Counted from the stretch's first letter, positions 7,701 to 38,104 are shown. The stretch is 44,333 nt of DNA from a bacterium (GCA_025774115.1 JALGWN010000001.1:1-44333), one strand, 5' to 3'. Notes: generated by a model not told the origin, from the letters alone. Program-made: numbers and translations.

Positions 7701-8295
7701 GATCCGCGATCCTCCTCATTACTTCCTGCGTTATCGCGCCATAGTCCTCTTTCCCAAGGCCCCCACGCCCCACCCTCCCGGGGGGCACGATGGGCTCTCC
7801 GAAAATCACTTCCAGCCTGGATTTTCGCAGGAGAACATCCCTGAGACGATTAGTACCCTTTATATAGGCCGGCACCACCGGTGAGGAGGTTAGCGCCGCG
7901 ATCATCCCGACACCGGGCTTGGGTTTCAAGAGTTTTCCGGTGAGGCTCCTGGTTCCTTCCGGAAACATGAGCACGGCCCTGCCCTGTTTCAGGAGACCTA
8001 CAACCTTCTTGAGGGCGCCTACGTCGCCAACCGACCTTCTCAGCGGAATTGCGTTATATTTGCTTATGAGCCAGCCGAACATCTTGTTCCGGAAGAGCTC
8101 CTCCTTGGCAAGAAAATAAACTTCACGCGGCACACCGCTTCCGACCACCGGCGGATCGTAATACGATACATGATTGGATGCGATTATCACAGCTCCTGCC
8201 TTGGGAATTCTCTCTCTGCCTGTCACCAGAAACCCGAAAAGGACCCGCTCCACCAGGTTCAGAAACATCCAGGACAACCTGTAGTGGATTCTCAA
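7657..8295 (-). CDS. plsC: 1-acyl-sn-glycerol-3-phosphate acyltransferase
   Basis: 212 aa with the HxxxxD acyltransferase motif (NHVSYYD), the FPEGTRS motif and an N-terminal hydrophobic segment. Confidence 0.85.
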   Translation of the reverse strand: MRIHYRLSWMFLNLVERVLFGFLVTGRERIPKAGAVIIASNHVSYYDPPVVGSGVPREVYFLAKEELFRNKMFGWLISKYNAIPLRRSVGDVGALKKVVGLLKQGRAVLMFPEGTRSLTGKLLKPKPGVGMIAALTSSPVVPAYIKGTNRLRDVLLRKSRLEVIFGEPIVPPGRVGRGGLGKEDYGAITQEVMRRIADLAQEARQEPQDHSE

Positions 8296-9008
8296 GTCCT
8301 CGCCCCCGTCTTCTTCCTGACCTCGTCGAGGACCCCGGTCACCTGTTCTTCGATCGTGAGATCGGTGGTATCTATGACCACAGCTCCCTCGGGGACGACC
8401 AGCGGGCTGTGCTCTCTTGATGAATCGAATACATCCCGCGCCCGGATATCGTTCCTTACCCTATCCAGGTCCACCGGCATCCCGGCGGCCTCGAGCTCCT
8501 TCTTGCGCCTCTCGGCCCGGCAGCCCAGGCCGGCCTCCAGATAGACCTTCACGTCGGCGTCGGGAAATACGACCGATCCCATGTCCCTTCCCTCCGCGAC
8601 GATGCCGCCGGCGGCACCGACACGCCGCTGCAGCTCCACCATCCTCTCCCTCACCGCCTTGACTGCGGATACAGGCGAAGACGCCCTGGTCACGTCCGCA
8701 CCCCGCAGTCGATCGGTCACGTCTTCCCCGTCTGTAAACACCCTGGTCCCATCGGGGTGGGTCTCGACGGTGATGTCGGTCCGTCGTGCCATCTCGGCAA
8801 GAAGATGCTCATTCCCGGGATCGATACCGTTTCTAAGGGCCTTGACCGTCATCGCTCTATACATGGCTCCGGTATCAAGATAGGTGTAACCCAGCCGGGC
8901 GGCCACAAACCTTGCAGTTGTACTCTTACCGGACCCCGCAGGGCCGTCTATGGTAACAACCAGCTTCTTCAAATCAACGTTTCCTTTTTGATAAATATGC
9001 TTGTTCAA
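8292..9008 (-). CDS. cmk: Cytidylate kinase
   Basis: 238 aa. P-loop IDGPAGSGKST followed by LDTGAMYRA, typical of Cmk. Sits in the cmk...rpsA neighbourhood. Confidence 0.93.
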   Translation of the reverse strand: MNKHIYQKGNVDLKKLVVTIDGPAGSGKSTTARFVAARLGYTYLDTGAMYRAMTVKALRNGIDPGNEHLLAEMARRTDITVETHPDGTRVFTDGEDVTDRLRGADVTRASSPVSAVKAVRERMVELQRRVGAAGGIVAEGRDMGSVVFPDADVKVYLEAGLGCRAERRKKELEAAGMPVDLDRVRNDIRARDVFDSSREHSPLVVPEGAVVIDTTDLTIEEQVTGVLDEVRKKTGART

Positions 9009-13039: not shown

Positions 13040-13067
13040 GGTACGACGCAACGAGGAGCGGCGAGTG

Positions 13068-13225
13068 TAACGTAGCAGACGGGCGGTTTCGACCGCTTCC
13101 ACAGTCCAGACCGGTCAAAAGCGTACGGATGCAAGGCTTGCGAAGGTTTGAGGAACGAGGCGTACTTGAGGTACGCCGCAGTAACGAAAATCGAGCCTAA
13201 CGTAGCAGACGGGCGGTTTCGACCG
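13068..13225. repeat. Two perfect 28-nt direct repeats 130 bp apart (repeat family 3)
   Basis: TAACGTAGCAGACGGGCGGTTTCGACCG occurs at 13068..13095 and 13198..13225. A diverged relative, TAACGCCGCAGACGGGTATTC, lies near 25898..25918 and is likewise followed by CCTGGGT. Confidence 0.85.
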
Positions 13226-13233
13226 GCCTGGGT

Positions 13234-13593
13234 TCAGAGGTCGGCCACATCCACATAGCGTGTAAACCCGTTGCCTCCATCAACCTCAATCAACACCGGA
13301 TCGACACCGCCGGCAGACCATCTGAACGCCATGATATCCACGTGGTCCCCGGCGTTTATGAGGTGGGCCGCGGCCCCGTTCATACATATGACACCGGTCC
13401 CGCGTTCACCCTTTATAACGTAGGTCTCCAACCTCTTACCATTCGTGTGATCGACCACAAGGACGTTCTCGTTCTCGCTCAGATTGGCCTTCTCAATCAG
13501 GTCCTGATCGATCGTTATGCTGCCAACATAGTGGAGATCCGCCTGGGTTACAGTGGCGTCCAGTATCATAGACTTCAGGAGAAGCCGTCGCAT
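13234..13593 (-). CDS. panD: Aspartate 1-decarboxylase homologue (pyruvoyl-type) with atypical Met9/Leu11/Asp12
   Basis: 119 aa that aligns without gaps to E. coli/B. subtilis PanD as I recall them. Conserved: ADLHYVGSITID (Tyr22, Gly24-Ser25), NGKRLETYV (Arg54, Thr57, Tyr58) and CMNGAAA (Asn72). The N-terminus reads LKSMILDATVT instead of the usual xGKLHRATVT. Confidence 0.85.
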   Translation of the reverse strand: MRRLLLKSMILDATVTQADLHYVGSITIDQDLIEKANLSENENVLVVDHTNGKRLETYVIKGERGTGVICMNGAAAHLINAGDHVDIMAFRWSAGGVDPVLIEVDGGNGFTRYVDVADL

Positions 13594-13613
13594 AGAACCT
13601 CCTATCTGCCGGT

Positions 13614-13622
13614 ATTATAACA
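13614..13622 (-). promoter_or_regulatory. Candidate extended -10 promoter element (TGTTATAAT) in front of panD
   Basis: The minus strand reads ...catTGCACatccgaactatgTGTTATAATaccggcagatAGGAGGttctATG. There is a perfect TATAAT (13619..13614) with a TGn extension, about 20 nt upstream of the panD ATG. The -35 is poor. Confidence 0.4.
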
Positions 13623-13660
13623 TAGTTCGGATGTGCAATGAAGAATTTTCGTAATACTGC

Positions 13661-15382
13661 CTAAGCCTTTTCCCCCGCGATTTCAATTAGGTACCGGACA
13701 AACCTGTTGTTCTCATCGACGAGTATGTTCTTGAATTGGGCTTCGGTCTCCTCCGACCAGGTGAAGGACATGATGATTATCTCATCCCCGGCATGAACTT
13801 GCTTCGCCGCAGCCCCTGTGATCTTGATCTCCCCCATGCCCTTCTTGCCCTTCCGGACGAAAGTCTCAACCCTGGCACCGTTATCATTGTCCACGATAAG
13901 GACCCTCTCACAGGGCGCGATGTTGGCCAGGTCGAGGAGCTCTTCATCGATAACAATCCCATCCACCTTGTCGGGTTCCTCGCCGTTGACATACGCCTTG
14001 TGGATTTTGGACTTGACGACAAGCCGTTCCTCTATCTTTGAGACTATGAATCTGAACTTGCCGGAGCGAGCCTGCGGTATGTCGTCCACAATATCGAAGT
14101 CAACCCGAAAACTCTCGCCCATGTTGGCCTTGATCTTCTGCTCGAGTGTAGCCTTGTACTCATCCTTCCATTCGGGTCCGGGAACCAGCCGGAAGACTAT
14201 ACCGCTCCGGTCACGCTGCTCTATCTGGAAACGTGCTATGCCCGGTACGGCCCTGGAAAGGAACGTCCAGAAGAAACCGCCGGCCGATTTTCCCTCAGGT
14301 GAAACGACAACATCGAACGTTCGCCCTTCGATGCGGTCGAGCAGTGGGAAGGTCCTGCCGCAGGGGCACGTCCTGTCGGAAGGTACCGCCAGATCACCCG
14401 TACGGTACCTCAGGAACGGCATATAGAGATTGGTGAGATCGGTCACGACTATCTCACCGATTTCCCCGGGCTCCGCGGGCCGCCCGCTTTCGTGGAGCAC
14501 TTCCAGATAGAAGAGGTCGGTACACATGTGGAGTCCGTTGCGCTCTTCGCACTCATGGGCTATGTTCCCGAACTCATTGGTTCCGTAGCCCTCATACACT
14601 TTGGATTTGAAGACATCTTCGAGGAGCTCTTCCTGGTGGTCATAGATCTTCTCGCCACTCGCCAGGATGCTCCCGGGTCTTATATCCGTGATCCTGCGGC
14701 TCTTGCAGAATTCAGCAAAAAGCGTGAGGGCGGACGGAAATCCGATAAGCAGGTGCGGCTTGAAAAACCTGAGTCTGGCGACGTAATCTTGCATTATCTC
14801 ATCTGACATCTTGAACGCCGAGAGCTGGAGAATATTGGCGGCATAGTCCCGCAAGGCTTCGGTCATGCGGGCCCTGAAGGACACTCCGAAGTAAGTGCCC
14901 CAGATTCTCGCCTGCCTGTCGCCTATGTCTATCCCCATCCATCGGAAACTCCTGATGGCGCAGGCTCGCCGTGGCGGCCCCGCCGCCGTGTCCACATCGA
15001 AGTAGAGGGGTTCGCCCGTCGAACCGCTCGTGCTCAGGGGGACGCCCCTTCTGCCGGGTTCTTCGGTCACGATTTGCCTCCCGGCAGCCCTTATTCTCTC
15101 TTTCGTAAGAAGCGGTATATTGAGGAAATCGACCGGACTCCGAATCTCCTCGACGCGAAGCCCCGTCTGCTTAAAGAGATCCTTGTAATAGGGTACATTT
15201 GTCTCTACGTGCTTGAGGAACCGCTCGAGACGGCTCCATTGGAGGTTGCCGAGCTCCTCCTGAGACAACCGCTCGTGACTCTGAAGTTCCTCCACACAGG
15301 CTTGGAGCCCGTCACCCTTCAGACGCCTTAAGAAAGGATATATGACTTTCCTGACAGCCCAGGGCGGAAGCGGCGGTAGCAT
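13661..15382 (-). CDS. Adenylate-forming ligase (PaaK / F390-synthetase / CapK-like, ANL superfamily) fused to a C-terminal, non-processing PanD-like domain
   Basis: 573 aa. ANL core motifs are present: STSGSTGEP, YGTNE, YRTGD, SGKFRF. Residues ~451-573 (13664..14032) align to PanD end to end: KIHKAYV...KVDGIVIDEELLD...NGARVETFV...ITGAAA...GDEIIIMSF. Confidence 0.85.
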   Translation of the reverse strand: MLPPLPPWAVRKVIYPFLRRLKGDGLQACVEELQSHERLSQEELGNLQWSRLERFLKHVETNVPYYKDLFKQTGLRVEEIRSPVDFLNIPLLTKERIRAAGRQIVTEEPGRRGVPLSTSGSTGEPLYFDVDTAAGPPRRACAIRSFRWMGIDIGDRQARIWGTYFGVSFRARMTEALRDYAANILQLSAFKMSDEIMQDYVARLRFFKPHLLIGFPSALTLFAEFCKSRRITDIRPGSILASGEKIYDHQEELLEDVFKSKVYEGYGTNEFGNIAHECEERNGLHMCTDLFYLEVLHESGRPAEPGEIGEIVVTDLTNLYMPFLRYRTGDLAVPSDRTCPCGRTFPLLDRIEGRTFDVVVSPEGKSAGGFFWTFLSRAVPGIARFQIEQRDRSGIVFRLVPGPEWKDEYKATLEQKIKANMGESFRVDFDIVDDIPQARSGKFRFIVSKIEERLVVKSKIHKAYVNGEEPDKVDGIVIDEELLDLANIAPCERVLIVDNDNGARVETFVRKGKKGMGEIKITGAAAKQVHAGDEIIIMSFTWSEETEAQFKNILVDENNRFVRYLIEIAGEKA

Positions 15383-15400: not shown

Positions 15401-16606
15401 TTAGGTTCTCCCCATCAGATAGTAGCGCAATAAGTATCTTAGTTTATAGCTTCGGATTGTCCAAAGTGATTTTCGCTCTCCGGCAAACAGATCGAGCGCC
15501 GCCACGAAGAATTCCGGATCGGTATTGCGTACGGTCACCTTGCCTCGCCAGATCCATGGTGAAGCACACCCGATCCTGTTTATCTCACCGGCGTCCTGGC
15601 CGAACGTGTTGCGTCTGGCAGGATCTTCGTAATGAGTGGTTGATGCGAGATAACCGGCCTCCGAGGCGATCCGTAAGGTTGCCGGGCTGCGGGCCCCACC
15701 CGGCCAGCAGAGAAAATCGACCCGTGTTCCGAGGGCCTCCTCTATCAGCCGTTTCGATTCCGAAAGCTCGTATCTCACACGCTCCAGATATTCGGTTTCG
15801 GTCTCGACCCTGTCCTGTCTATTGCCGTATTCACCGACAACCTTTTGAAGTTCCTGCCTCCAGCCTTCTTCGCGGAAGAACGAAGGTCCTCCGCGCTCAA
15901 CCACGGTATCGACCAACCGCCTCGTGAGACCTGTATTTTCGAAGTACCGCGGCCCACCCAACGATTTCGCGTGCTCATATATCGGCACACCGTACGGGAT
16001 ATCGTCTTCAAGCCGGGCTGTGAGGCTTTCGTGCTTCCTCTCCGGGAAGATGTTCCATCCCAGCCAGGGAGGAGGGCTGTAACCGTCCACACCCGTCGGA
16101 CGGTGAAAATCAACCACCCTGGGGCCGCTCGGGTACCACGTGTGCGTCATCGCATGACTCTGAATCTCGACGTGGCCCCCCACCGCCATCCGACGCATTT
16201 CTGCCCAGGACAGATAACCTCTGTCGACAAGATCCGTGGCTCTCAGTCGCCCCGACCGGACATCGTCGAGTGTCGGCCTCGGATCCGTTAACGGATCGAC
16301 AAAGTCGGTGGTCATCCAGACCACGGCGTGCAGGCCGTATTGCTTGATTATGGGATACACATATACCCAGTTGTCCAGATAGCCGTCATCGAAAGTCAGA
16401 ACGACGGGCTTCGGCGGGAGCTTCGCACCTTTCGACATATGAGCATGGAGATCGGCAAGGCTTATCGCCGTCCAGCCTCGCTCCGCGAGCAACCTCATCT
16501 GGGCTTCGAAGACATCGACAGAAGTGGTGAGATAGTTCCATATCCAGTCGGGCCGCGGCGGCCCGACGGAGTGGTACATGACGACCGGAACTCCCCGGGG
16601 TGTCAT
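15401..16606 (-). CDS. Polysaccharide deacetylase (NodB homology domain, CE4 family)
   Basis: 401 aa with VVLTFDDGY (CE4 motif 1) and IQSHAMTH (the His-His metal motif), plus a long C-terminal extension. It is 18 nt upstream of the ligase gene, so probably co-transcribed with it. Confidence 0.85.
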   Translation of the reverse strand: MTPRGVPVVMYHSVGPPRPDWIWNYLTTSVDVFEAQMRLLAERGWTAISLADLHAHMSKGAKLPPKPVVLTFDDGYLDNWVYVYPIIKQYGLHAVVWMTTDFVDPLTDPRPTLDDVRSGRLRATDLVDRGYLSWAEMRRMAVGGHVEIQSHAMTHTWYPSGPRVVDFHRPTGVDGYSPPPWLGWNIFPERKHESLTARLEDDIPYGVPIYEHAKSLGGPRYFENTGLTRRLVDTVVERGGPSFFREEGWRQELQKVVGEYGNRQDRVETETEYLERVRYELSESKRLIEEALGTRVDFLCWPGGARSPATLRIASEAGYLASTTHYEDPARRNTFGQDAGEINRIGCASPWIWRGKVTVRNTDPEFFVAALDLFAGERKSLWTIRSYKLRYLLRYYLMGRT

Positions 16607-16792: not shown

Positions 16793-17929
16793 CTATGCGG
16801 TCTTTCGCCTGTGGAGGTCAAAATAGAGATCCTTGATTCTCTGTGCTATGTGTTGCAGGCCGAACTTCTCGGCGGCGGTCCTGAGAGCGGCCCTTCCCAA
16901 CCTCTCGGCCAGATCCTTGTCGGTAAGCAGTTTCTCGACCGCCTCGGCCAGCGCGAGGGTGTCACCGGGCGAAACCAGTATTCCGTTTTCCCCGCCGGTA
17001 ATCGCATCGGGTATGCCCCCGACGTCGGTGGCAACGATCGCCTTGCCGCAAGCCATGGCCTCAATCAGGGAAACCGGGAAGCCTTCCCTTACCGAAGGCA
17101 AAACAAACACATCCGCAGCGTGCAGGAGGTCGGATATGTCACTGCGGGCCCCCGCGAGCTTGACGTTCTCCCCGACACCCACAACCCCTATCCGCGCATC
17201 TATCTCTCCTCTAAGCTTGCCTTCACCGGCGATCAGACACCTCACCGTCGGGATACGATCCCTTATGGAGCCGATCGAATCCGCCAGAAGCGGATAGTTC
17301 TTCTCTCTCACCAGCCGGCCGACCGACACAACCAGTGGGTCGGCGGCATCCCAACCGAACTCCGTCATGATCTCATGCTTTCCGCGAGTGGGGGTCTTGA
17401 AAAGATTCAGATCCACACCATTGGGCAAGTATTCCAGCTTGCCGCGCGGCGTGCCCTCCCGGCGGGCGCGGATCTCGAGAATATCATGACTCACGCAAAT
17501 CCTGAGATCGGTTACTCCGTTCAGCATCTTCTCGAACAAGACACGGCCCCGGGATTTCCACAGACCCCGGCCGTGTTCGGTGGTAATCCTGACAGGTACA
17601 CCGCCCAGCCAACCCGCAAGCCTACCCACCCAGTCCGCCGGCGGCAGGTGGCAGTGTATCACATCAATTTCCTGGTCCCTCAGATAGCGCGCCAGCCTGA
17701 GCAGTGCAAATGGCAAGAATCTCCATCGAAAACCTAGGTTGAAAAAGGAGTCCGCATATCGCCGAGCTTGTCTTTCCATCCGGCGGTCGCCTGAGGTTAG
17801 ACAACAGACCGAGACTCGCATACCCGATCGGTCCAGAACACGAAGCTGGTCGAGCACTTGCACCTCGGCTCCGCCGAGATCGAAGATCGGGATCAGGATG
17901 CAGACGCGAAGCGGCATATGGCTCTTCAT
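16793..17929 (-). CDS. Glycosyltransferase family 4 (GT-B, GT1/RfaG-like)
   Basis: 378 aa. N-terminal GGAEVQV donor-fold motif; C-terminal FVLPSVREGFPVSLIEAMACGKAIVATDVGGIPD (the E-x7-E region) typical of GT4. Confidence 0.88.
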   Translation of the reverse strand: MKSHMPLRVCILIPIFDLGGAEVQVLDQLRVLDRSGMRVSVCCLTSGDRRMERQARRYADSFFNLGFRWRFLPFALLRLARYLRDQEIDVIHCHLPPADWVGRLAGWLGGVPVRITTEHGRGLWKSRGRVLFEKMLNGVTDLRICVSHDILEIRARREGTPRGKLEYLPNGVDLNLFKTPTRGKHEIMTEFGWDAADPLVVSVGRLVREKNYPLLADSIGSIRDRIPTVRCLIAGEGKLRGEIDARIGVVGVGENVKLAGARSDISDLLHAADVFVLPSVREGFPVSLIEAMACGKAIVATDVGGIPDAITGGENGILVSPGDTLALAEAVEKLLTDKDLAERLGRAALRTAAEKFGLQHIAQRIKDLYFDLHRRKTA

Positions 17930-20730: not shown

Positions 20731-21285
20731 CTATGCTCCTTCGGTGCCCAGGCCTAAACTGGGCTGGCCGGATTCAAGCGCAAGAAGCCACCTCTTCAGC
20801 GGCAGTCCCCCCCCGAAACCTCCAAGGCCGCCGTGCGAGTCCAAAACCCTGTGGCAGGGGATGAAGATCGGGACGGGATTCCTTCCCAGGGCTCCGCCCA
20901 CGGCCCTCGCGGCGTTCGGATCGCCCAGTTTCTCGGCCACCCAGGCATAGGAACGCACCTGGCCGTAAGGTATCTTCGACGCCACTCTCCAGACCTTCCT
21001 AGAGAAAGGGGTGGAGCTCCTGAGATCGAGCTTCACCGAAAACCTCCTCAGCTTCCCTTCCAGGTAGAGGAGAAGCTCCCTCGCTGCGTGTTCCACGTGT
21101 TGCCCGCCCTTTTCGAAAACGATGCCCGGGGTCTTCTCATAAAGAGACTTCACCGCTTCCACGTCAAGCGGCCCGAGGTTCACCCAAAAGAGGCCCCTCT
21201 GAGAGGTCGCAAGCCAGATGTCCCCCAGGCGCGACTTAAGACTCAGATGGTTCACAATGAGCACCGATTCTCTCTTCCCGGCCAC
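20731..21285 (-). CDS. ogt: Methylated-DNA--protein-cysteine methyltransferase
   Basis: 184 aa with IPYGQVRSYAWVAEKLG...ARAVGGALGRNPVPIFIPCHRVL (the PCHR active-site motif). Confidence 0.88.
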   Translation of the reverse strand: MAGKRESVLIVNHLSLKSRLGDIWLATSQRGLFWVNLGPLDVEAVKSLYEKTPGIVFEKGGQHVEHAARELLLYLEGKLRRFSVKLDLRSSTPFSRKVWRVASKIPYGQVRSYAWVAEKLGDPNAARAVGGALGRNPVPIFIPCHRVLDSHGGLGGFGGGLPLKRWLLALESGQPSLGLGTEGA

Positions 21286-26434: not shown

Positions 26435-28156
26435 CTAAACCGCCAGCTTCCGCTTCTCGTCCTTGACAGTATCAACGATTATCCGCACCGCCTCCCGGCG
26501 GTCCAGCTTTATGGTCTCACCGGTCTTACGGTGGCGGAGTTCCACCTTGCCTTCCTTGGCGGCACGCTCGCCCACCGTGACCCTCAGAGGTGTCCCGACC
26601 AGATCCGCGTCCTTGAACTTGTTGCCGGCCCGCTCATCGCGGTCATCCAGGATAACTTCGATCCCGGCGTCGGTGAGCCCGGTGTAAATGGCCTCAGCTG
26701 TCTCTCGGAGATCCTCATCCGACACGTTGGTCGGCAGTATGTGAACCTCGAATGGGGCTATGCTTATCGGCCAGACGATCCCATCCTTGTCATTGTGCTG
26801 CTCGATCGCAGCAGCCACCGTCCTGGTGACGCCTATACCGTAGCAGCCCATGACGAATGGATGCTCCTCGCCCTGCTCGTCCAGGAAGCGGGCCTTCATC
26901 ACCTCTGAGTACTTTGTGCCAAGTTTGAAGATCTGCCCTACCTCAATCCCCCTCCAGGTCGACAGGGGCTTACCGCAGCACTTACAGGGATCCCCTTCGA
27001 TCGCCACGATGACGTCGTGGAACTCGCGGACATCAAAATCCCGGCCGAGATTGACATTCACGTAATGGGCATCCGCCTCATTCGCCCCCGTCACCATGTT
27101 CGCCATTCCCGCCACGCGGTGGTCGGCTATGAGCCTCACTCCCTTGAGACCCACGGGGCCTGAGAAACCCAGGGGTCCACCGGTCACCTTCTCGATTTCC
27201 TCGGCTGCGGCCATCACAAAGTCGGTGGTTCCGAGGGCGCGCCCAAGCTTGATCTCGTTAACCTCACGGTCTCCCCGGACCAGAACCGCCGCATACTCAT
27301 CGCCCACTTTGTATATTATGGTCTTCAAGAGTTCGCTGGGCTTCTTCTTAAGGAACTGCGTGACCTCCTCCACGGTGGTGGTACCGGGCGTGCTCACCTT
27401 CTCCAGGGCTGCCTGTCCTGCCTCAGCCGCCGCCTGTACCGGTTCGCATTCGGCCGTGTCTATCGTGGCCGCGTATCCGCAATCACAAGCGAATACCTGC
27501 GACTCACCCGTCTCGGCAAAAACCATGAACTCGTGCGTCACGTCTCCCCCAATAGCGCCCGAGTCCGCTTCCACCGGACCGAACCTGAGGCCGCACCGCT
27601 TGAATATCCTGGTATAGGCCTCGAACATCCGGTCGTAGGTCTTGGCCAGACAAGCCTCATCCCTGTGAAAGCTGTATGCGTCTTTCATCAGGAACTCACG
27701 GGCCCGGACCACCCCGAATCTCGGCCTTACTTCATCCCGGAACTTGGTCTGGATCTGAAAGAGAATAAGCGGCAGTTGACGGTAGGAGCGCACGTCGCGC
27801 CTCACTATATCGGTCACGACCTCTTCATGCGTGGGACCCAGGGCGAAGAAACGGTCATGCCTGTCCTTGACACGCATCAGTTCTTTTCCGTAAACGTTCC
27901 ATCTTCCGCTTTCGGTCCAGAGCTCCGACGGGCTCAGAACCGGCATGAGGATTTCCGATCCCCCGGCACGGTTCATCTCTTCCCGGACTATGTTCTCCAC
28001 CTTCTTGACGGCCCGGAGCCCCAACGGCAGCAGACTGTAGATCCCCGATGAGAGCTTCCTGACAAGACCCGCCCTTACCATCAACCGATGGCTTATTATC
28101 TCCGCTTCCGCAGGAGTCTCCTTGAGTGTCGGCAACAGATACTCAGTCCAGCGCAT
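26435..28156 (-). CDS. proS: Proline--tRNA ligase (bacterial type with INS editing domain)
   Basis: 573 aa with HRLMVRAGLVRKLSSGIYSLLPLG, a class II core, an inserted editing domain and a C-terminal anticodon-binding domain. The start overlaps the aldolase gene end by 14 nt. Confidence 0.95.
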   Translation of the reverse strand: MRWTEYLLPTLKETPAEAEIISHRLMVRAGLVRKLSSGIYSLLPLGLRAVKKVENIVREEMNRAGGSEILMPVLSPSELWTESGRWNVYGKELMRVKDRHDRFFALGPTHEEVVTDIVRRDVRSYRQLPLILFQIQTKFRDEVRPRFGVVRAREFLMKDAYSFHRDEACLAKTYDRMFEAYTRIFKRCGLRFGPVEADSGAIGGDVTHEFMVFAETGESQVFACDCGYAATIDTAECEPVQAAAEAGQAALEKVSTPGTTTVEEVTQFLKKKPSELLKTIIYKVGDEYAAVLVRGDREVNEIKLGRALGTTDFVMAAAEEIEKVTGGPLGFSGPVGLKGVRLIADHRVAGMANMVTGANEADAHYVNVNLGRDFDVREFHDVIVAIEGDPCKCCGKPLSTWRGIEVGQIFKLGTKYSEVMKARFLDEQGEEHPFVMGCYGIGVTRTVAAAIEQHNDKDGIVWPISIAPFEVHILPTNVSDEDLRETAEAIYTGLTDAGIEVILDDRDERAGNKFKDADLVGTPLRVTVGERAAKEGKVELRHRKTGETIKLDRREAVRIIVDTVKDEKRKLAV

Positions 28157-28925
28157 GTTTTCCTTCCCTTAAGGTCTTGACTACCTCTTCAACAATCATC
28201 TTGACCAGCCGGCTCTCGTCGACCGAATCCCCGACCGAGCAAGTTCCCGATTCCACACAACCCGGATAAGGCCCCTTTATACCTAGGTGTTCGCGGAGAT
28301 TCACAAGCTTATCGACCTCTTCACGGGCGAGAGGCTTCACCCTGCCCAACTGCCCCGCAATGAAACTTATATGTGCGAAATGTTCCACGGTTTCCATCTT
28401 ATGATAGGCGCCGAGGACGTCGGGCCCGACGGTCATCACACCATGGTTCTTAAGCAGGAACGCATCACTCCGCATGACCACTCCCTCTATGGACTCGGGT
28501 ACCTCCTCGGTCGACGGCGTGCCGTAGCGGGCCAGAGGCACCGACCCTAGAGTGAGAATTACCTCCGGGAGTATGCATTCCTCGAGCGGGATGCCGGCCA
28601 CCGCATAAGCGGTCGCATAGGGTGGGTGGGCGTGAGCCACCGCGTTCACATCGTCCCTCAGCTCATATGCACGCACATGCATCTTGACTTCGGATGTCGG
28701 TTCACGCTTGCCGCTTACCTTCCGGCCGGCCATATCGACTACCACAAGATCGCTACGAGCCATGAAGCCTTTGCTCATACCCGTCGGAGTGACGAGCACA
28801 CGGTCCTGTGAGATCCGCACACTGACGTTGCCGTCGTTGGCGGCAACATAGCCGCGTTCATACATCCTGCGGCCCACGTGTATGATGGCCTCACCTGCTT
28901 CCTCGACGGAGATCATGCGACTCAT
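28143..28925 (-). CDS. Class II aldolase/adducin-family enzyme (fuculose/rhamnulose-1-phosphate aldolase-like), microcompartment-associated
   Basis: 260 aa with NDGNVSVR, PTGMSKG, AVAHAHPPYATA (Zn His pair) and LLKNHGVMTVG. A ~45-aa C-terminal extension ends in an amphipathic segment, SRLVKMIVEEVVKTLRE. It is the last gene of the BMC operon. Confidence 0.88.
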   Translation of the reverse strand: MSRMISVEEAGEAIIHVGRRMYERGYVAANDGNVSVRISQDRVLVTPTGMSKGFMARSDLVVVDMAGRKVSGKREPTSEVKMHVRAYELRDDVNAVAHAHPPYATAYAVAGIPLEECILPEVILTLGSVPLARYGTPSTEEVPESIEGVVMRSDAFLLKNHGVMTVGPDVLGAYHKMETVEHFAHISFIAGQLGRVKPLAREEVDKLVNLREHLGIKGPYPGCVESGTCSVGDSVDESRLVKMIVEEVVKTLREGKHALD

Positions 28926-29206
28926 GTGTCGTCGCCCCGCTTGAAATCGATCCGGTCCACCACACCCAGAATCAGCGTTCTTATGGTCGGATACTTCACA
29001 TCCATCACGGTACGCGTCGCCGTTCCCTGGTCGATGATCAGGACAACATCGCCGACACCCGAGTCCACCATGTCTATGGCAATAAGCGGCTTGCCGTACT
29101 CGGCCCCGTCGGGCTCCAGCGGCTGCACCAGCAGGAGCTTCCGTGCATTCAGAGTCTCGTACTTTACGGACGAGACCACATCACCTATCACCTTGGCTAT
29201 GTACAT
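28922..29206 (-). CDS. BMC vertex protein (BMC-P, EutN/CcmL family), paralog 3
   Basis: 94 aa. MYIAKVIGDVVSSVKYETLNARKLLLVQPL...IAIDMVDSGVGDVVLI is typical of EutN/CcmL pentamers. Confidence 0.88.
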   Translation of the reverse strand: MYIAKVIGDVVSSVKYETLNARKLLLVQPLEPDGAEYGKPLIAIDMVDSGVGDVVLIIDQGTATRTVMDVKYPTIRTLILGVVDRIDFKRGDDT

Positions 29207-29209
29207 GGC

Positions 29210-29473
29210 CTATAGATCCACCCGGTCTACAATCCCCATGATAGCCGCATCCGCCGGATTGAACTTGTCCTCAAGCGTATGCGCGGCCTCCCGGCCCTTG
29301 ACGAAATAGACGATATCCCCGGGCCCCACCCTGACCGTGTCGATTGCCACTACGGGACGACCGTCAGGTTTGCCTTGGGGATCGAGGGGTTGGACTACCA
29401 GGAGCTTTGAGCCCTTGAGCGGCTCGACCTTCATGGTGGCCACCACAGTCCCTATAACCTTCGCAATGTGCAT
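29210..29473 (-). CDS. BMC vertex protein (BMC-P, EutN/CcmL family), paralog 2
   Basis: 87 aa. MHIAKVIGTVVATMKVEPLKGSKLLVVQPLD...VAIDTVRVGPGDIVY. Confidence 0.88.
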   Translation of the reverse strand: MHIAKVIGTVVATMKVEPLKGSKLLVVQPLDPQGKPDGRPVVAIDTVRVGPGDIVYFVKGREAAHTLEDKFNPADAAIMGIVDRVDL

Positions 29474-29476
29474 ATC

Positions 29477-30034
29477 CTAACCCAGCTTCCCTTTGAGATC
29501 GCCGTGCGGACGCGGGATGACGACTGACTTGACCAGCATTCCCGTAGGCTTAATCAGACCCACGCCGACATCCACACCGGCAGTTACATCACTGACATCG
29601 CCTGTCATAGTTACAAATGACTTCCCGGCCAGCCCTTGCGCAAGCCTAAGGTCCTTGAGTCTCACCTTCGCAGCCTTAGCCGCCCCGTCACCGGCGATGA
29701 TGGATGCCGCGACGGAGAAAGTCTCGATCACGCCCAGGGCCTTGATCTCTCCCACGTCGGCGGTCCCCATGATCGCAGGGAAGACGTCCACGTGGATGTT
29801 GGGGATAAACAGGCTATCGACCATGAACTCCGATCCCACCTCTTTGCCCCGCCTTACCGAGGACTCCACCGCCGACACCTCACCGCCTACCAGGGAGATG
29901 TACTTGCCTGGACATATGGTCATCGCCGCAATGAGTGTGACCGGCGCGACCTTCACCATCTCATCCGCCGTCATTATGCCTGCGGCGATGCTATTGAGCT
30001 CCACCATCCCTATGGCTTCGATGTCGCGCTTCAT
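29477..30034 (-). CDS. pduT: Tandem-domain BMC shell protein (BMC-T), PduT-like with the conserved pore cysteine
   Basis: 185 aa with two BMC domains (IGMVELNSIAAG... and LGVIETFSVAAS...). The TICPGKY motif corresponds to the Cys that ligates the [4Fe-4S] cluster in PduT as I recall that sequence, and VIPRPH lies near the C-terminus. Confidence 0.85.
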   Translation of the reverse strand: MKRDIEAIGMVELNSIAAGIMTADEMVKVAPVTLIAAMTICPGKYISLVGGEVSAVESSVRRGKEVGSEFMVDSLFIPNIHVDVFPAIMGTADVGEIKALGVIETFSVAASIIAGDGAAKAAKVRLKDLRLAQGLAGKSFVTMTGDVSDVTAGVDVGVGLIKPTGMLVKSVVIPRPHGDLKGKLG

Positions 30035-31386
30035 TGCTTCTCCACAACCACCACATTGTCGAGTTCGACCACCATACCGTCTATGCTGGCGTGCACCCTG
30101 GCTCCCACGGCCTCGCGATCCATCTCTCCGACAACCTGTCCGCGGCGCACGATATTCCCTTCCTTGACAACCGGAGTCGCCGGCACGCCCACATGCTGCG
30201 TGAGCGGGATCCTCACTTGCCGAGGCTCCACGCGGCCGGCGAACTCGAGATCATGCTCGTGGGGGCGGAGTCCGGTCCGTTCCACTATTCTCGCATGAGG
30301 CACCAGCCTGCCGGCTCGGACCGGCAATACGTCACCGGCGGGTTCCCCCTCCTGTCTTACCCCACGCTCCCCCATTTGCGCCCGAACCATGAAGCTTATT
30401 CTATCCGGCGAGAGAAGCATAGGGCAAACATAAACACCGCAGAGACCGCAACCCGAGCAGAAGAGAGCGCCTGCAAGATCGGGAACATACTCCCTTCCCC
30501 ATGAAATTGCCCTCATGATCTTGTGAGGGCTGATATCATGCCCCATCAGATGCCTCGGGCAAAGCTCCGTACACTGGGTGCATTGGCAGCAAACCGAGGC
30601 GGCCCGTCTCACCATGACATCAACAGGCAGCGACTTTCTCACCATGATCTCGCTGTCCCGGGGCAATACCGCAATCGACCCGACGCGCTTGTCTATAGGG
30701 GTCGTGAGATCCTCACAATACTGCCCCATCATGATTCCTGAAAGGAGCATCCCCTTATCATCCAGGCCCGAGCGGTTACCGGTAAGATCGAGGGCTTCCC
30801 CGACCGTCGTCCCTACCGGCACCTCCACAACACATGGATGGATGACATCACCGCAGATAGAGATCACGCGGTCGGTCACAGGCTCTCCGTCAACGGCCCG
30901 CTTGACATTCACCAGGGTGTTGGCATTTGAGACCACCACACCCACATCCGGGGGAATACCGCCCCCGGGGATAACCCGCTCGGTTGCCTCGTAAACCAGT
31001 ATGTGCTCATCCCCCGCAGGATACATATCCGCCACCGTCACGACCTCGACACCCCTCGCTCCTTTCACCCCATCGCCCACCCGACCAAGGACGTCGGCCT
31101 GCCCTTCACGCAGGGCCACATATCCACGGCCCGCACCCGTCGCAAGCATCATTATGAGAAGCCCGTCGATCATTTCATCGAGGCGTGAGGTGAGGACGTG
31201 CCTGTCGGTCCCGAGCAGAGGCTCGCACTCGCAAGCGTTGGCAATCACCGTATCGGCCGCCGCTGCGGCCTTTATGTGGGTCGGGAAGCCCGCCCCTCCG
31301 GCACCCACTACCCCGGCCTTGAAAATCCTGTCCCTTATTTCCTGCTTAGAGGTTGGGAAATCCCTTGCCAATGGAAGAGACCTCAA
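30031..31386 (-). CDS. pduS: PduS-like RnfC/Nqo1-family flavoprotein with two 4Fe-4S motifs
   Basis: 451 aa with VGAGGAGFPTHIK (NADH/FMN-binding region), an SLBB-like middle part, the Cys clusters CCQCTQCTELCP and CSGCGLCGVYVCP, and a C-terminal barrel-sandwich domain. Confidence 0.83.
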   Translation of the reverse strand: MRSLPLARDFPTSKQEIRDRIFKAGVVGAGGAGFPTHIKAAAAADTVIANACECEPLLGTDRHVLTSRLDEMIDGLLIMMLATGAGRGYVALREGQADVLGRVGDGVKGARGVEVVTVADMYPAGDEHILVYEATERVIPGGGIPPDVGVVVSNANTLVNVKRAVDGEPVTDRVISICGDVIHPCVVEVPVGTTVGEALDLTGNRSGLDDKGMLLSGIMMGQYCEDLTTPIDKRVGSIAVLPRDSEIMVRKSLPVDVMVRRAASVCCQCTQCTELCPRHLMGHDISPHKIMRAISWGREYVPDLAGALFCSGCGLCGVYVCPMLLSPDRISFMVRAQMGERGVRQEGEPAGDVLPVRAGRLVPHARIVERTGLRPHEHDLEFAGRVEPRQVRIPLTQHVGVPATPVVKEGNIVRRGQVVGEMDREAVGARVHASIDGMVVELDNVVVVEKQ

Positions 31387-32807
31387 ACGATACGGAAATA
31401 GTCAACAAGCACGCAGCGTCGCATTCTGGTGAAGGTGCGCGCGGAAGTAAGCCCCTCCCCGGTCGGGCTTGCTATCGTGAAACTCGTGAAGCCCTCACCC
31501 CCAAAACCCAATCCGGCGTATGACGGCCCGTTCTTGACGAAGATGGTGGTGTTTATGAATCTCGCCATCTTGGAGAGCATAGTGATGTCGGTCGAATGCA
31601 TCACGGCCGAATGCCCGAAGCCGTGCTCGACCCGCTTTGCGAGCACGATACCCTGGTCGGCATCTCGGACTCTCACGATGGGCAGAACCGGCATCAAGAG
31701 CTCCGTCCATACGAAAGGATGGGACTCGGGGGTCTCACATATTATGAGTCTGGGGTCCCCCCCGCTCTTGATCCCGATCTCGGAAAGAAGCAGGGCCGCG
31801 TCTTTGCCGACAAACTCCCTCTTGGTGACCGCGTGTTTCGACGGACCACGGTCCTCCTTGATGATGAGATCTCTGAGTCTGTCGATGTCCCGCCCTTTGA
31901 TTTCTATGGCACCATTGTCGGCCATTTTGCTCTTGAGCCGGTCGACCACGCTGTCGACCGCCAGCACCTCTTTTTCACAGATGCATACGATGTTGTTGTC
32001 AAGCGAGGCCCCGCTTACAAGGTGCTTGGCCGCACTATCAAGATCGGCGGTCTCATCCACCACGGCAGGCGGGTTGCCGGGGCCGGCCGCTATCACCTTC
32101 TTGTGGGAGTTCATCGCCTCTCTTACCACCGCACCGCCACCGGTCACAACAACCAGCTTGACCTTCGGGTGTTTCATCAGGGCCTGGGCCGTCTCGATCG
32201 TCGGCTCGGTCACACATGCAAGCACATCGGGCGGCCCCCCCTCCGCAGTAATCGCGGAGTTGAGGAGCTCGATGGTCCTCAGAGTGGTCCGGGTTGCCCC
32301 CGGATGCGGATTGAAGACGACGGAGTTGCCCCCTGCTACCATACCGATTGCATTGTTTATGACCGTTTCCGATGGATTGGTGGAAGGCGTGATCGAACAG
32401 ATGACGCCGTAGGGTGCCCTTTCCACAATCGTGACACCGTGATCTCCGGACACCGCATCGGGTTCGAGATCTTCGACACCCGGGGTCCGGGTCGCCGCGA
32501 GCAGGTTTTTGTTTACCTTGTCCTCGTACCTGCCAAGCCCCGTCTCCTCCAGGGCAAGGCGCGAGAGCTCCTCGGCATGCTCGCAGGAGATCTTCCTCAT
32601 CGCGGCGATTATCTTGCGGCGTGTTTCCAATGGGACATCGCGGAGTCCCTCGAACGCGCGCCCCACAGCGTCCAGGGCCCCATCGACCGAAGCAAAAGCC
32701 CCCCCGACACCTGAGGTCGGCGGAGCCGGTGAAACACCCATACCTTCGGTCTTTAGCTTCTTCAGGACCTCCCCGACAATCGCACTTATGGTTTTCTCAT
32801 CAAGCAT
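31383..32807 (-). CDS. CoA-acylating aldehyde dehydrogenase (PduP/EutE family) with an N-terminal encapsulation-peptide-like helix
   Basis: 474 aa with the catalytic region NNIVCICEKE, a GPGNPP motif, and the N-terminal amphipathic segment TISAIVGEVLKKLK followed by a Pro/Gly-rich linker. Confidence 0.9.
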   Translation of the reverse strand: MLDEKTISAIVGEVLKKLKTEGMGVSPAPPTSGVGGAFASVDGALDAVGRAFEGLRDVPLETRRKIIAAMRKISCEHAEELSRLALEETGLGRYEDKVNKNLLAATRTPGVEDLEPDAVSGDHGVTIVERAPYGVICSITPSTNPSETVINNAIGMVAGGNSVVFNPHPGATRTTLRTIELLNSAITAEGGPPDVLACVTEPTIETAQALMKHPKVKLVVVTGGGAVVREAMNSHKKVIAAGPGNPPAVVDETADLDSAAKHLVSGASLDNNIVCICEKEVLAVDSVVDRLKSKMADNGAIEIKGRDIDRLRDLIIKEDRGPSKHAVTKREFVGKDAALLLSEIGIKSGGDPRLIICETPESHPFVWTELLMPVLPIVRVRDADQGIVLAKRVEHGFGHSAVMHSTDITMLSKMARFINTTIFVKNGPSYAGLGFGGEGFTSFTIASPTGEGLTSARTFTRMRRCVLVDYFRIV

Positions 32808-36219: not shown

Positions 36220-38052
36220 TCAGCGGCGCCGAGGGAATGCCATGCTACTATAGAATTCCTCCTTGAAGTCGGGCTTCGAGAAAAGCTCCACATGCTCGGC
36301 CTCTGATGCTACTCGTTCGGCCTCCCGGCGGGCCGCTCTCGATGCGAGGAATATCTTTGCCCCTTCGATCGCAGAATTCCCGATGATTTTGATTCTACCC
36401 TTGAATTCCGCAGGCACGAGGCCGATCCTCCGGATGTTGGAGCTGCGAAGAGCCGAGCCGAAGCTGCCGGCTATGAGAATCTGCCGGATGTCTCCGATAT
36501 CGACGCCCGCTGCACGGGCCAGACTTCCCATGCCCGCGCACATGGCCGCCTTGCCCAGCTGCACTTCCCTTATATCGCCTTGTCTCAATCTCACGGAGGG
36601 TTTGCGGCTCAGTATAAACTCCCGGCCCCTGTCTCCGGACACTACCCTGCCGGCCAGCAAGCGGGACCTTATCTCTTCCGGTGTCTTGATTCTTCCGCTC
36701 GGCTCAATCACTTTCGCCCGGAGGAGTTCTGCCACCGAGGCGATCAGGCCTGAGCCGCAAAGACCCGCCGGCCTGCCCCCACCTATGGTCTTGAGATTGA
36801 CTCCGTTACTGTCTATGCGCACATCCTCCACCGCCCCCGTGATGGCCCTTACCCCGTTGCTTATCCGTTCACCCTCGAAGGCCGGCCCGGCCGCCGTCGA
36901 ACAGACGACGAGCCGGCCGTCGGCAGCCAGCGCAATCTCGCCGTTGGTGCCGAGATCGATCGCCATAATGGGGACCTTACGCTTGTGCAGCGACTGGGAG
37001 ATTATCAGGGCCACCAAGTCTCCCCCAACAAAACCTCCAAGCGAAGGAGGCATGATCAGTCTGCAATCGCCATGAACATCGAGTCCGCTCCTCGAGGCGA
37101 GGGTCTCCACCGAGCTCATGAGCCGCGCACGATAGGGAGCCCGGCCCAGGTCGGCTGGGGACACGCCGACCAGAATGTGCTGCATCGCCGTGTTGCCCAC
37201 CGCACTGCACAGATATATGCGCCTGGGATCCACATCCATGGTTTTGGTGAGCTCCCGGCATAGGCCGTTAATAAGATGCACGATCTCACGTTGAAGCATG
37301 TCTACACCACCCGATACCTTGGCAAACCGTATCCGTGATATTACGTCGTCGCCGTGGATTATCTGAGGATTGATGGTCGAGGTCGTCCCCAATTCCTTCC
37401 CCGTGATGAGGTCAACCAGCGAGCAGACAACCGTATTCGTGCCCACATCCACGGCCAAGCCGTAGCATTCGGATGAGGTATCGCCGGCTTCGAAACCGAT
37501 GATGCCGTCATGCGCGGCCACAACCGTTGCATTCGTATGAAGGCCGAGTCGCCACTCATGGTCCATCCTGAGATCACGGTCCATCAGGTCCGCATCGGCC
37601 ATACGCAGGGCGATGTCATCTATCCCGATGTGGAAGCCCTCGGCAAGCTTACGCATACTGCGCGCATCTCGTACACCGAGGAAGACCTTGATGATGCCCG
37701 GATCGAACCTGTAGGACCGCGACGTGCGGCCGCGCGTTGTGATCTTCTGTATGGTGATCCGGGAGGTTTCCGGAATTGTGACCTCGGCATCGCCTTCAAG
37801 CCTCGCCATACATGCAAGCCTGGCGTGCTTTACCCCCTTGGGCAGTATGGCTTTCTCCTCCGGCTCGATGGCAGAGACCTTCCCTTTTACCTTCACGATA
37901 CACTTCCCACACCTTCCATGCCCTCCGCACGGCATGGACACCGGAATGGCCGCTGCGAAGAGCGCTTCCTTCACTGTGGAACCCGACACCACCCACACCT
38001 CTTTGGCGTCCGGCTCAAACAGCACCCGAACCGATTGCTTATTCACCATCAC
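36220..38052 (-). CDS. 2Fe-2S ferredoxin domain + ASKHA (DUF4445) protein, RACo-like reductive activase family
   Basis: 610 aa. The N-terminus has plant-type ferredoxin cysteines (PCGGHGRCGKCIV...RLACMA). A long ASKHA/actin-like ATPase region follows (AVDVGTNTVV..., AIDLGTNGEI...), as in corrinoid activation proteins. Confidence 0.82.
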   Translation of the reverse strand: MMVNKQSVRVLFEPDAKEVWVVSGSTVKEALFAAAIPVSMPCGGHGRCGKCIVKVKGKVSAIEPEEKAILPKGVKHARLACMARLEGDAEVTIPETSRITIQKITTRGRTSRSYRFDPGIIKVFLGVRDARSMRKLAEGFHIGIDDIALRMADADLMDRDLRMDHEWRLGLHTNATVVAAHDGIIGFEAGDTSSECYGLAVDVGTNTVVCSLVDLITGKELGTTSTINPQIIHGDDVISRIRFAKVSGGVDMLQREIVHLINGLCRELTKTMDVDPRRIYLCSAVGNTAMQHILVGVSPADLGRAPYRARLMSSVETLASRSGLDVHGDCRLIMPPSLGGFVGGDLVALIISQSLHKRKVPIMAIDLGTNGEIALAADGRLVVCSTAAGPAFEGERISNGVRAITGAVEDVRIDSNGVNLKTIGGGRPAGLCGSGLIASVAELLRAKVIEPSGRIKTPEEIRSRLLAGRVVSGDRGREFILSRKPSVRLRQGDIREVQLGKAAMCAGMGSLARAAGVDIGDIRQILIAGSFGSALRSSNIRRIGLVPAEFKGRIKIIGNSAIEGAKIFLASRAARREAERVASEAEHVELFSKPDFKEEFYSSMAFPRRR

Positions 38053-38104
38053 TCTCCGGTCATTGGCCCGGCACGTAAGGGGTCGGATCTTAGATCCGAC
38101 CCCT

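Follow-up and report, generated by a model that had tools for sequence, protein, structure and literature searches.

The stretch of bacterial DNA analysed here (GCA_025774115.1 JALGWN010000001.1:1-44333; 44,333 nucleotides (nt), hereafter the window) carries two adjacent genes, each encoding a relative of PanD, the aspartate 1-decarboxylase that works through a self-generated pyruvoyl cofactor. The upstream gene encodes a fusion protein of 573 amino acids (aa), in which a CapK/PaaK-type adenylate-forming ligase is followed by a PanD-like domain, called below the fused domain. The downstream gene encodes a stand-alone PanD paralog of 119 aa, called below small PanD. The two open reading frames (ORFs) are separated by 67 nt, and lie in a cassette of four genes read in the order GT4 glycosyltransferase, CE4 (PgaB-type) de-N-acetylase, fusion, small PanD. 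The features of the cassette are the following.

16793..17929, minus strand: GT4 glycosyltransferase, first gene of the conserved cassette
15401..16606, minus strand: CE4 (PgaB-type) polysaccharide de-N-acetylase, 18 nt upstream of the fusion; conserved cassette partner
13661..15382, minus strand: fusion protein, 573 aa, CapK/PaaK-type adenylate-forming ligase followed by the PanD-like domain
14033..15382, minus strand: ligase part of the fusion, residues 1-450, complete through the A10 lysine K442 in SGKFRF
13664..14032, minus strand: PanD-like domain of the fusion, residues 451-573, without the cleavage serine
13598..13603, minus strand: AGGAGG ribosome-binding site of small PanD, 4 nt before the ATG
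13234..13593, minus strand: small PanD, 119 aa; pyruvoyl-side residues intact, Lys9, His11 and Ile86 changed to Met, Leu and Asp

The coordinates of both ORFs and the 67-nt gap, as reported in a preliminary description of the locus made from the sequence alone, were confirmed. Start codon and residue numbering of small PanD are secure, because AGGAGG lies 4 nt upstream of the ATG; in alignment, residue 1 pairs with residue 1 of Mycobacterium tuberculosis PanD. Another ORF of 573 aa in the window (26435..28156) was considered as a possible paralog of the fusion and discarded, as it encodes a prolyl-tRNA synthetase.

The residue register was set by HMMER alignments to solved PanDs, and codons were checked one by one. 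Residues 1-91 of small PanD align with residues 1-91 of M. tuberculosis PanD, and residues 453-549 of the fusion with PanD positions 3-99. Both alignments are free of gaps, and the register is therefore fixed; a shift that would place a serine at the cleavage site of the fused domain, or Lys and His at positions 9 and 11 of small PanD, was looked for and ruled out. Small PanD matches the Pfam family PF02261 (Asp_decarbox) over nearly its full length (E 1e-37, 129 bits, cut-off 25), and scores 121 bits against TIGR00223 (panD), above the 106-bit cut-off. The fusion matches PF02261 over residues 454-561 (E 6.8e-28, 97 bits, same cut-off) and TIGR00223 over residues 455-563, where 78.5 bits fall below the cut-off. 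In an AlphaFold2 model of the fusion the PanD-like domain has a predicted local distance difference test score (pLDDT) of ~86-93. A complete PanD fold from about residue 451 to the end of the fusion, as first described, is consistent with these matches. Residues found at the main active-site positions, in PanD numbering, are listed next.

Position 9: Met (13567-13569) in small PanD, Lys459 in the fused domain
Position 11: Leu in small PanD, His461 in the fused domain
Position 12: Asp in small PanD, Lys in the fused domain
Position 22: Tyr in small PanD, Lys472 in the fused domain
Position 24: Gly in small PanD, Asp474 in the fused domain
Position 25: Ser in small PanD, Gly475 in the fused domain
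Position 54: Arg in small PanD, Arg504 in the fused domain
Position 57: Thr in small PanD, Thr507 in the fused domain
Position 58: Tyr in small PanD, Phe508 in the fused domain
Position 72: Asn in small PanD, Thr522 in the fused domain
Position 86: Asp in small PanD, Ile536 in the fused domain

The codons of the residues that matter most are located as follows.

13561..13569, minus strand: Met9-Ile10-Leu11 of small PanD; Lys-x-His in canonical PanD
13519..13524, minus strand: Gly24-Ser25 of small PanD, intact self-cleavage site and pyruvoyl precursor
13336..13338, minus strand: Asp86 of small PanD; Ile in canonical PanD
14000..14008, minus strand: Lys459-Ile-His461 of the fused domain (PanD 9-11)
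13958..13963, minus strand: Asp474-Gly475 of the fused domain, replacing the Gly24-Ser25 cleavage site
13871..13873, minus strand: Arg504 of the fused domain (PanD 54), contributed by the adjacent subunit in canonical PanD

Small PanD shares its fold with the canonical enzymes of Escherichia coli and M. tuberculosis (PF02261/TIGR00223), and retains the residues of processing and catalysis (Gly24-Ser25, Thr57, Tyr58, Asn72), as well as Tyr22 and Arg54. Met9, Leu11 and Asp86 take the place of Lys9, His11 and Ile86, which are listed as strictly conserved among aspartate decarboxylases (PMC3314653). The fused domain has Lys9 and His11, and lacks the Gly24-Ser25 pair from which a pyruvoyl group can form, as well as Tyr58 and Asn72. 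Thr57 is required for PanD activation, and Tyr58 is the proton donor (PMC3975893). The domain borders and residue equivalences of the preliminary description hold in the Pfam and NCBIfam searches, in the alignments and at the codons, both for small PanD (including Asp12) and for the fused domain; to the latter must be added Arg54 and Thr57, retained and previously unmentioned.

Canonical PanD is a homotetramer in which both faces of the active site are present on every subunit; in contrast, small PanD is devoid of Lys9, His11 and Ile86, and the fused copy of the cleavage site, Tyr58 and Asn72. The site lies between neighbouring subunits, one contributing Pyr25, Thr57 and Tyr58, the other Lys9, which ion-pairs with the alpha-carboxylate of the substrate, and Arg54, which binds the beta-carboxylate and gives specificity (PMC3314653). 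The same partition is seen in the structure of M. tuberculosis PanD with pyrazinoate, where Arg54 resides on the adjacent subunit and the backbone of Ala74 and Ala75 on the pyruvoyl subunit (PMC6969166). Strands 2-14, 41-48, 52-59 and 82-94 make up the side of the pocket contributed by the adjacent subunit (PMC11808261). Residue 86 is thus on the same face as residues 9 and 11, because strand 82-94 belongs to that side. As Lys9 and Arg54 sit on the subunit beside the pyruvoyl subunit, the two proteins have lost opposite faces of one site. Earlier, pyruvoyl, Thr57, Tyr58 and Arg54 had all been ascribed to small PanD. The first three stay there; Arg54 goes with the ligase-borne half, because the structures place it, like Lys9, on the adjacent subunit, and it is invariant in the fused domain.

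The fusion is not a peculiarity of the window. More than 100 full-length relatives, about 573 aa long and with identity down to ~47%, were identified, mostly in metagenomes. Relatives with names belong to Candidatus Krumholzibacteriota, Latescibacterota or Eisenbacteria. In a literature search, no paper was found on CapK-PanD fusions, PanD-like domains or fusions, or Lys9-less PanDs. The preliminary description knew of no described fusion of an ANL ligase with PanD, and this agrees with the result of that search; in databases, more than 100 protein clusters carry the fusion, annotated automatically as 'aspartate 1-decarboxylase', 'phenylacetate-CoA ligase' and the like. The same literature search found no paper on K9A PanD mutants.

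Conservation was compared on the two faces in 28 canonical PanDs, in the 120 nearest relatives of small PanD and in 108 fused domains, taking into account positions at least 90% conserved in the canonical set. At these positions, departures of the small family from canonical PanD are confined to 9, 11 and 86, which all belong to the neighbour face. Those of the fused family are confined to 22, 24, 25, 26, 58, 60 and 75, with 72 in addition, and all of them belong to the pyruvoyl side. Mean frequencies of the majority residue were as follows.

Fused domain: neighbour-face strands 0.85, pyruvoyl-side loops 0.51
Canonical PanD: neighbour-face strands 0.77, pyruvoyl-side loops 0.74
Small PanD: neighbour-face strands 0.87, pyruvoyl-side loops 0.92

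These values suggest that the fused domain is conserved exactly where the donation of residues to a neighbour would need it, and that its pyruvoyl-side loops have been selectively relaxed. Lys9, His11, Arg54 and Gly73 are present in all 108 fused domains. Position 24 is Asp in 105 and Glu in 3, position 25 Cys in 73, Gly in 20 and Ser in 15. The Gly25 of the window is a minority state, most relatives featuring Asp-Cys (73/108) and some Asp-Ser (15/108) at positions 24-25. Position 58 is Phe in 93/108, and Asn72 is found in 9 domains only. A more distant clade of fusions (L005, L016, L019, L092) retains Asn72, and L005 retains Tyr58 too.

In the 120 relatives of small PanD, position 9 is Met in 116, Val in 3, Ile in 1, and Lys in none. 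Position 11 is Leu, Met, Ile, Phe or Val, never His, and position 12 varies (Gly, Lys, Arg, Gln). Asp86, Tyr22, Gly24, Arg54, Thr57, Tyr58 and Asn72 are present in all, Ser25 in 119. Mean identity in the family is 79%. The pattern is rare among PanDs at large. An exhaustive HMMER search was run over 1.84 billion cluster representatives (50% identity), and 149 of the best 150 matches were analysed: absence of Lys9 together with presence of Asp86 marks 3 of them, ~143 keep Lys9, and 3 others have no Lys9, or an unaligned one, for other reasons. In a neighbour-joining tree the fused and the small family are each monophyletic; covariation of residues between small and fused sequences taken as pairs tracks phylogeny so closely that it says little.

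A search with the fused domain alone returned contig-end fragments and canonical PanDs only, and no free-standing 'dead' PanD. No natural protein joining small PanD and fused domain in a single chain was found among the matches; the longer P0060 and P0068 have only N-terminal extensions. P0249 (148 aa, on a 4.2-kb metagenome contig) resembles the fused domain in its first two thirds (Lys9, His11, Asp24-Gly25), and the small PanD C-terminus, including Asp86, in its last third. It appears to be either a recombinant of the two paralogs or a chimera created by assembly.

The partition of residues suggests that one complete site is made by the two proteins together. It has to be weighed against its strongest rival, in which the two act in the same pathway at separate sites. 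Small PanD would then be a self-sufficient homotetramer with a remodelled neighbour face (Met9, a hydrophobic residue 11, Asp86, Arg54 kept) and changed kinetics or substrate, and the dead fold would serve as an oligomerisation domain, or a domain binding aspartate or beta-alanine. The near-fixed Met9 and Asp86, with Arg54 kept, look indeed like a selected new pocket. On general reasoning, hydrophobic or anionic surroundings of the leaving carboxylate can in principle favour decarboxylation, and PanD homologues with other substrates exist, such as CrpG, a beta-methylaspartate decarboxylase. Separate sites leave unexplained, however, why Lys9, His11 and Arg54 are kept in all fused domains, the pyruvoyl-side loops of which are relaxed (0.51 vs 0.85). 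A ligand pocket formed between fused domains would need conservation on both sides, and beta-alanine has no alpha-carboxylate for Lys9. Variability at positions 11 and 12 of the small proteins is more easily explained by relaxation than by a precise new pocket. On balance, separate sites are regarded as rather unlikely.

Fusion and small PanD are also genetically linked. Ninety-four loci were gathered by scanning genomes and metagenomes and by looking up exact proteins, and searched in six frames with a PanD profile; the scan of genome contigs, with the fusion protein as query, returned one close relative and two distant ligases. A second PanD ORF was found in 22 of 25 fusion loci, the window counted, and is without Lys9 in every case read. 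No PanD ORF was found beside related ligases devoid of the PanD domain (0/70 loci, 518 kb of flanks). The difference is large (Fisher p = 1e-18), the value being nominal, as the loci are not phylogenetically independent. Four ligase-only relatives (51-56% identity) end immediately past the A10 motif, at the very point where the PanD-like domain begins in the fusion, and have no PanD nearby. In the reverse direction, three look-ups were started from Lys9-less PanDs of long contigs, and each led to an adjacent fusion. In L092 the fusion stop codon overlaps the small PanD start. Two of the fusion loci without a second PanD are little informative: in L006 only 170 nt of downstream sequence are available, in L008 513 nt, filled by an opposite-strand ORF like the insert in its relative L007. 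These ORFs (L007 9107-10084, minus strand; L008 1849-2271, minus strand) represent an inserted ORF of ~1 kb, which in one subclade separates fusion and small PanD, otherwise adjacent. The pairing is conserved in nearly all related loci, L013 being the exception discussed below.

Any two enzymes of one pathway are expected to co-locate, and linkage would thus be found also if the two proteins worked at separate sites; the Lys9-less PanDs, however, were never met without a fusion, either in the three seeded look-ups or in the survey of fusion loci. The counts match what is expected of paired paralogs of the S-adenosylmethionine decarboxylase (AdoMetDC)/prozyme type, in which an active and an inactive protein are encoded together and co-inherited. 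Linkage data fit equally well the explanation that the dead domain is an activator of small PanD, promoting self-cleavage or relieving inhibition as PanZ or prozyme do, with no donation of residues. E. coli PanD needs the partner PanZ for activation (PMC3975893), and Trypanosoma brucei AdoMetDC, a pyruvoyl enzyme, is switched on by a dead paralog (PMC5201418). A purely allosteric role needs no invariant Lys9, His11 and Arg54, and does not account for the function of a small protein that has no Lys9 and His11 of its own. The activator explanation is held to be improbable.

In the ligase part of the fusion the motifs STSGSTGEP (A3 P-loop), YGTNE (A5), YRTGD (A7) and SGKFRF (A10 lysine) were all found, with codons checked, and both the N- and the C-terminal ANL subdomains are present. 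The Pfam AMP-binding match is weak, beside the strong Asp_decarbox match; precomputed Pfam assignments of fusion relatives are CapK_C plus Asp_decarbox. NCBIfam models for PaaK, F390-synthetase and DVU1553-type ligases match residues 34-378, all far below the equivalog cut-offs. By HMMER, the ligase part matches PaaK and BT_0428 (E 6e-34 for the latter). The AlphaFold2 model of the fusion has a mean pLDDT of 85.9; searched with Foldseek, its first ~430 residues retrieved BT_0428, PaaK1/2, 2-hydroxyisobutyryl-CoA ligase (HCL), NatL2, ClxA and AjiA1, with template modelling scores (TM-scores) of 0.66-0.69 to PaaK-family structures over ~430 residues. From motifs and profiles, the ligase part is assigned to the PaaK/CapK branch of the ANL superfamily, in keeping with the adenylation core of PaaK/F390-synthetase/CapK type recognised at first, and is not a PaaK equivalog. 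Identity with phenylacetate-CoA ligase was rejected (TIGR02155, 90 vs a cut-off of 646 bits; NF041878, 104 vs 700), and the Joint Genome Institute (JGI) label 'phenylacetate-CoA ligase' is unsupported, the scores being far below the PaaK equivalog cut-offs.

The best functional precedent for this class of ligase is VpsH, a PaaK/CapK-like protein of Vibrio cholerae. In a 2026 study, VpsH proved genetically necessary for glycine to be amide-linked to the lipid-linked uronic acid of Vibrio polysaccharide (PMC13463779). The likeness is in the description, that of a PaaK/CapK-like enzyme encoded in a polysaccharide locus and needed to place an amino-acid amide on a lipid-linked sugar (PMC13463779). 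VpsH differs in having no PanD domain and in using a free proteinogenic amino acid.

The order GT4, CE4, fusion, small PanD is found also in L001, L004 (a complete 4.1-Mb genome), L010, L011, L015, L086, L087, L088, L092 and L094. In the CE4 de-N-acetylase of the window an N-terminal signal peptide is not evident. The best matches of the GT4 protein among solved structures include BshA and MshA enzymes; entries 2jjm and 3mbo are presumably BshA. In the window and in nearer relatives the cassette is set amid housekeeping genes (in the window trpS, scpAB, cmk, uvrC, murJ). In L005, L087 and L092 it resides inside polysaccharide loci with a Wzx-type flippase, many glycosyltransferases and sugar-nucleotide enzymes; the L005 locus also contains Wzy_C, Poly_export and Bac_transf genes. 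Distant ligases without the PanD domain are often still beside GT4 and CE4 (L025, L023, L032, L089). Because of this, the GT4-CE4-ligase trio looks ancestral, and both PanD elements look like a joint addition.

The housekeeping surroundings could be taken to mean that small PanD simply serves pantothenate and coenzyme A (CoA) synthesis, the ligase fusion and glycan genes being incidental, or that the PanD copies are decaying remnants. The score of small PanD above the NCBI panD equivalog cut-off points the same way. Against this, panB and panC are missing from the window; both copies are conserved with intact ORFs across clades, down to ~48% ligase identity; the four-gene order is conserved, and found in polysaccharide loci of other lineages. 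A mean identity of 79% in the small family is incompatible with decay, and a pseudogene reading was ruled out by the conservation of both families. Such a housekeeping or remnant role is highly improbable.

Small PanD is followed by a spacer of 416 nt, and then by a strong promoter-like site ahead of the next gene. The spacer contains a direct repeat of 56 nt (13040-13095 and 13170-13225), the copies of which are 80% identical and start 130 nt apart. Their exact 27-nt core, GGTCGAAACCGCCCGTCTGCTACGTTA (minus strand), is not found elsewhere in the window, and the repeat had no match above the gathering score in Rfam.

In L010 (12185-15797) small PanD is directly followed by a second CapK-like ligase, without PanD domain, and by a second and a third CE4 deacetylase, so that a paralogous ligase-deacetylase set adjoins the PanD-containing set. 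A FemAB-like Acetyltransf_6 protein is encoded in the polysaccharide-cluster loci L005 (11900-13003) and L087 (12049-13098). The gene directly follows the fusion in L005; in L087 it lies ~3.7 kb past small PanD, beside a second GT4-CE4 pair. The protein hints at a further step of aminoacyl or acyl transfer.

Taken together, residue partition, conservation and linkage point to an obligate heteromeric aspartate decarboxylase, that would supply beta-alanine to an amide ligase tailoring a glycan. A probability of roughly 0.5 is assigned to this reading. Small PanD would self-cleave at Gly24-Ser25 to form the pyruvoyl cofactor, and provide the pyruvoyl-side residues Tyr22, Thr57, Tyr58 and Asn72 and the 73-75 backbone. 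The ligase-borne domain, next in the ring, would provide Lys9, His11 and Arg54, binding the two carboxylates of the substrate. If the subunits alternate around the ring, two active sites would be complete and two interfaces would be dead. As the PanD-like fold starts ~10 residues past the catalytic A10 lysine, beta-alanine would be made beside the ligase, and possibly channelled to it. The ligase would then join beta-alanine in an amide to a sugar, built by the adjacent GT4 and de-N-acetylated by the adjacent CE4. Two orientations may be envisaged: the sugar amine, once freed, may attack beta-alanyl-AMP, or the amine of beta-alanine may attack the adenylate of a uronic acid, the latter being the route proposed for the addition of glycine by VpsH. 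A hetero-oligomer of small PanD and ligase-borne domain had been suggested in the preliminary description. The suggestion agrees with all the comparative tests run (linkage, residue partition), except for the side of Arg54, and moving Arg54 to the ligase-borne face improves the fit of the model.

Several observations weigh against an obligate heteromer. Small PanD keeps Arg54 in 120/120 relatives, and Met9 and Asp86 are nearly fixed, none of which is needed by a face that is purely lost; this face could still form a working site, with itself or with the fused domain. A Cys or Ser follows Asp24 in 88/108 fused domains, and some self-processing may occur there. A shared pathway without physical contact would give the same linkage, and since the loci are related by descent, the Fisher test counts for less than its value. 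In L013, the sole informative exception, no PanD was found within 3.7 kb downstream of the fusion. In L094 the fusion is intact, and the small PanD (7975-8326) is disrupted by a deletion of about residues 31-65 and a frameshift, being either a pseudogene or an assembly error.

The nearest functional precedents for the proposed heteromeric decarboxylase are found in trypanosomatids. T. brucei AdoMetDC is a pyruvoyl decarboxylase that has to be bound to a catalytically dead paralog for activity (PMC5201418). It differs in its fold and eukaryotic origin, and its prozyme is unfused and allosteric, relieving autoinhibition with no donation of active-site residues. In trypanosomatid deoxyhypusine synthase, an impaired and a dead paralog form a heterotetramer ~3000-fold more active than the impaired subunit alone (PMC3663545); enzyme and chemistry are unrelated, and there is no fusion partner. 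Fusion of a paralog with a downstream enzyme is seen in neither system. PanZ has an acetyltransferase-like fold. The PanD-PanZ (PanM) complex of E. coli is similar in that PanD depends on a second protein for activity (PMC3975893), and different in that PanZ is not a PanD paralog and gives no Lys9 or His11, the active site of E. coli PanD being complete in itself.

The cassette also resembles the bacillithiol and mycothiol pathways, in which a GT4 enzyme (BshA/MshA), a deacetylase and an ATP-dependent ligase act, and may follow the same order of chemistry. The resemblance goes no further, as the cassette deacetylase is of CE4 and not LmbE type, the ligase of CapK/PaaK type and not BshC/MshC, the GT4 similarity is generic, and other lineages have the cassette in Wzx/Wzy polysaccharide loci.

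Other genes of the window deserve mention. A run on the minus strand (28143-32807) encodes a class II aldolase, a tandem bacterial microcompartment (BMC)-domain shell protein, an RnfC/Nuo51-like Fe-S flavoprotein and an aldehyde dehydrogenase, and is typical of a bacterial microcompartment locus. Two separate genes (20731-21285, minus strand; 42099-42671, plus strand) each encode an O6-methylguanine-DNA methyltransferase DNA-binding domain (PF01035), placed after an N-terminal region of ~90 residues. A RACo-type corrinoid activase (2Fe-2S and ASKHA domains) is encoded beside a molybdopterin oxidoreductase at 36220-40078 (minus strand), and is unrelated to the PanD finding.

A wider scenario is put forward tentatively, and is somewhat less probable than the heteromer itself. 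After duplication, the two paralogs would have lost opposite faces of the site, giving an enzyme that works only as a heteromer, one half of which is carried by a CapK-type ligase. Beta-alanine would be put directly on a de-N-acetylated sugar, and the product would be an undescribed beta-alanylated glycan, or a small glycoside based on glucosamine (GlcN) and made along bacillithiol-like lines. The trait would be a core one in Krumholzibacteriota and neighbouring candidate phyla. The literature search brought up no paper that describes beta-alanine amides in O-antigens, and none that connects Krumholzibacteria with beta-alanine.

Bacterial cases in which each of two paralogs has lost one face of a shared site, leaving activity to the mixed complex alone, are uncommon, and here the candidate donors (Lys459, His461, Arg504) and acceptors (Ser25, Thr57, Tyr58) can be named. 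The automatic names 'aspartate 1-decarboxylase', given to both proteins, and 'phenylacetate-CoA ligase', given to the fusion, are likely to mislead the metabolic reconstruction of uncultured phyla, including that of pantothenate synthesis. The conserved set made by GT4, CE4, ligase and PanD suggests that a glycan or glycoside receives an amino-acyl modification not recognised so far, and may add a decarboxylase-fed variant to the poorly understood class of CapK/VpsH polysaccharide amide ligases. If the heteromer is real, the locus would provide a bacterial case, readable in the sequence, of complementary degeneration leading to an obligate complex with a built-in hand-off of the substrate.

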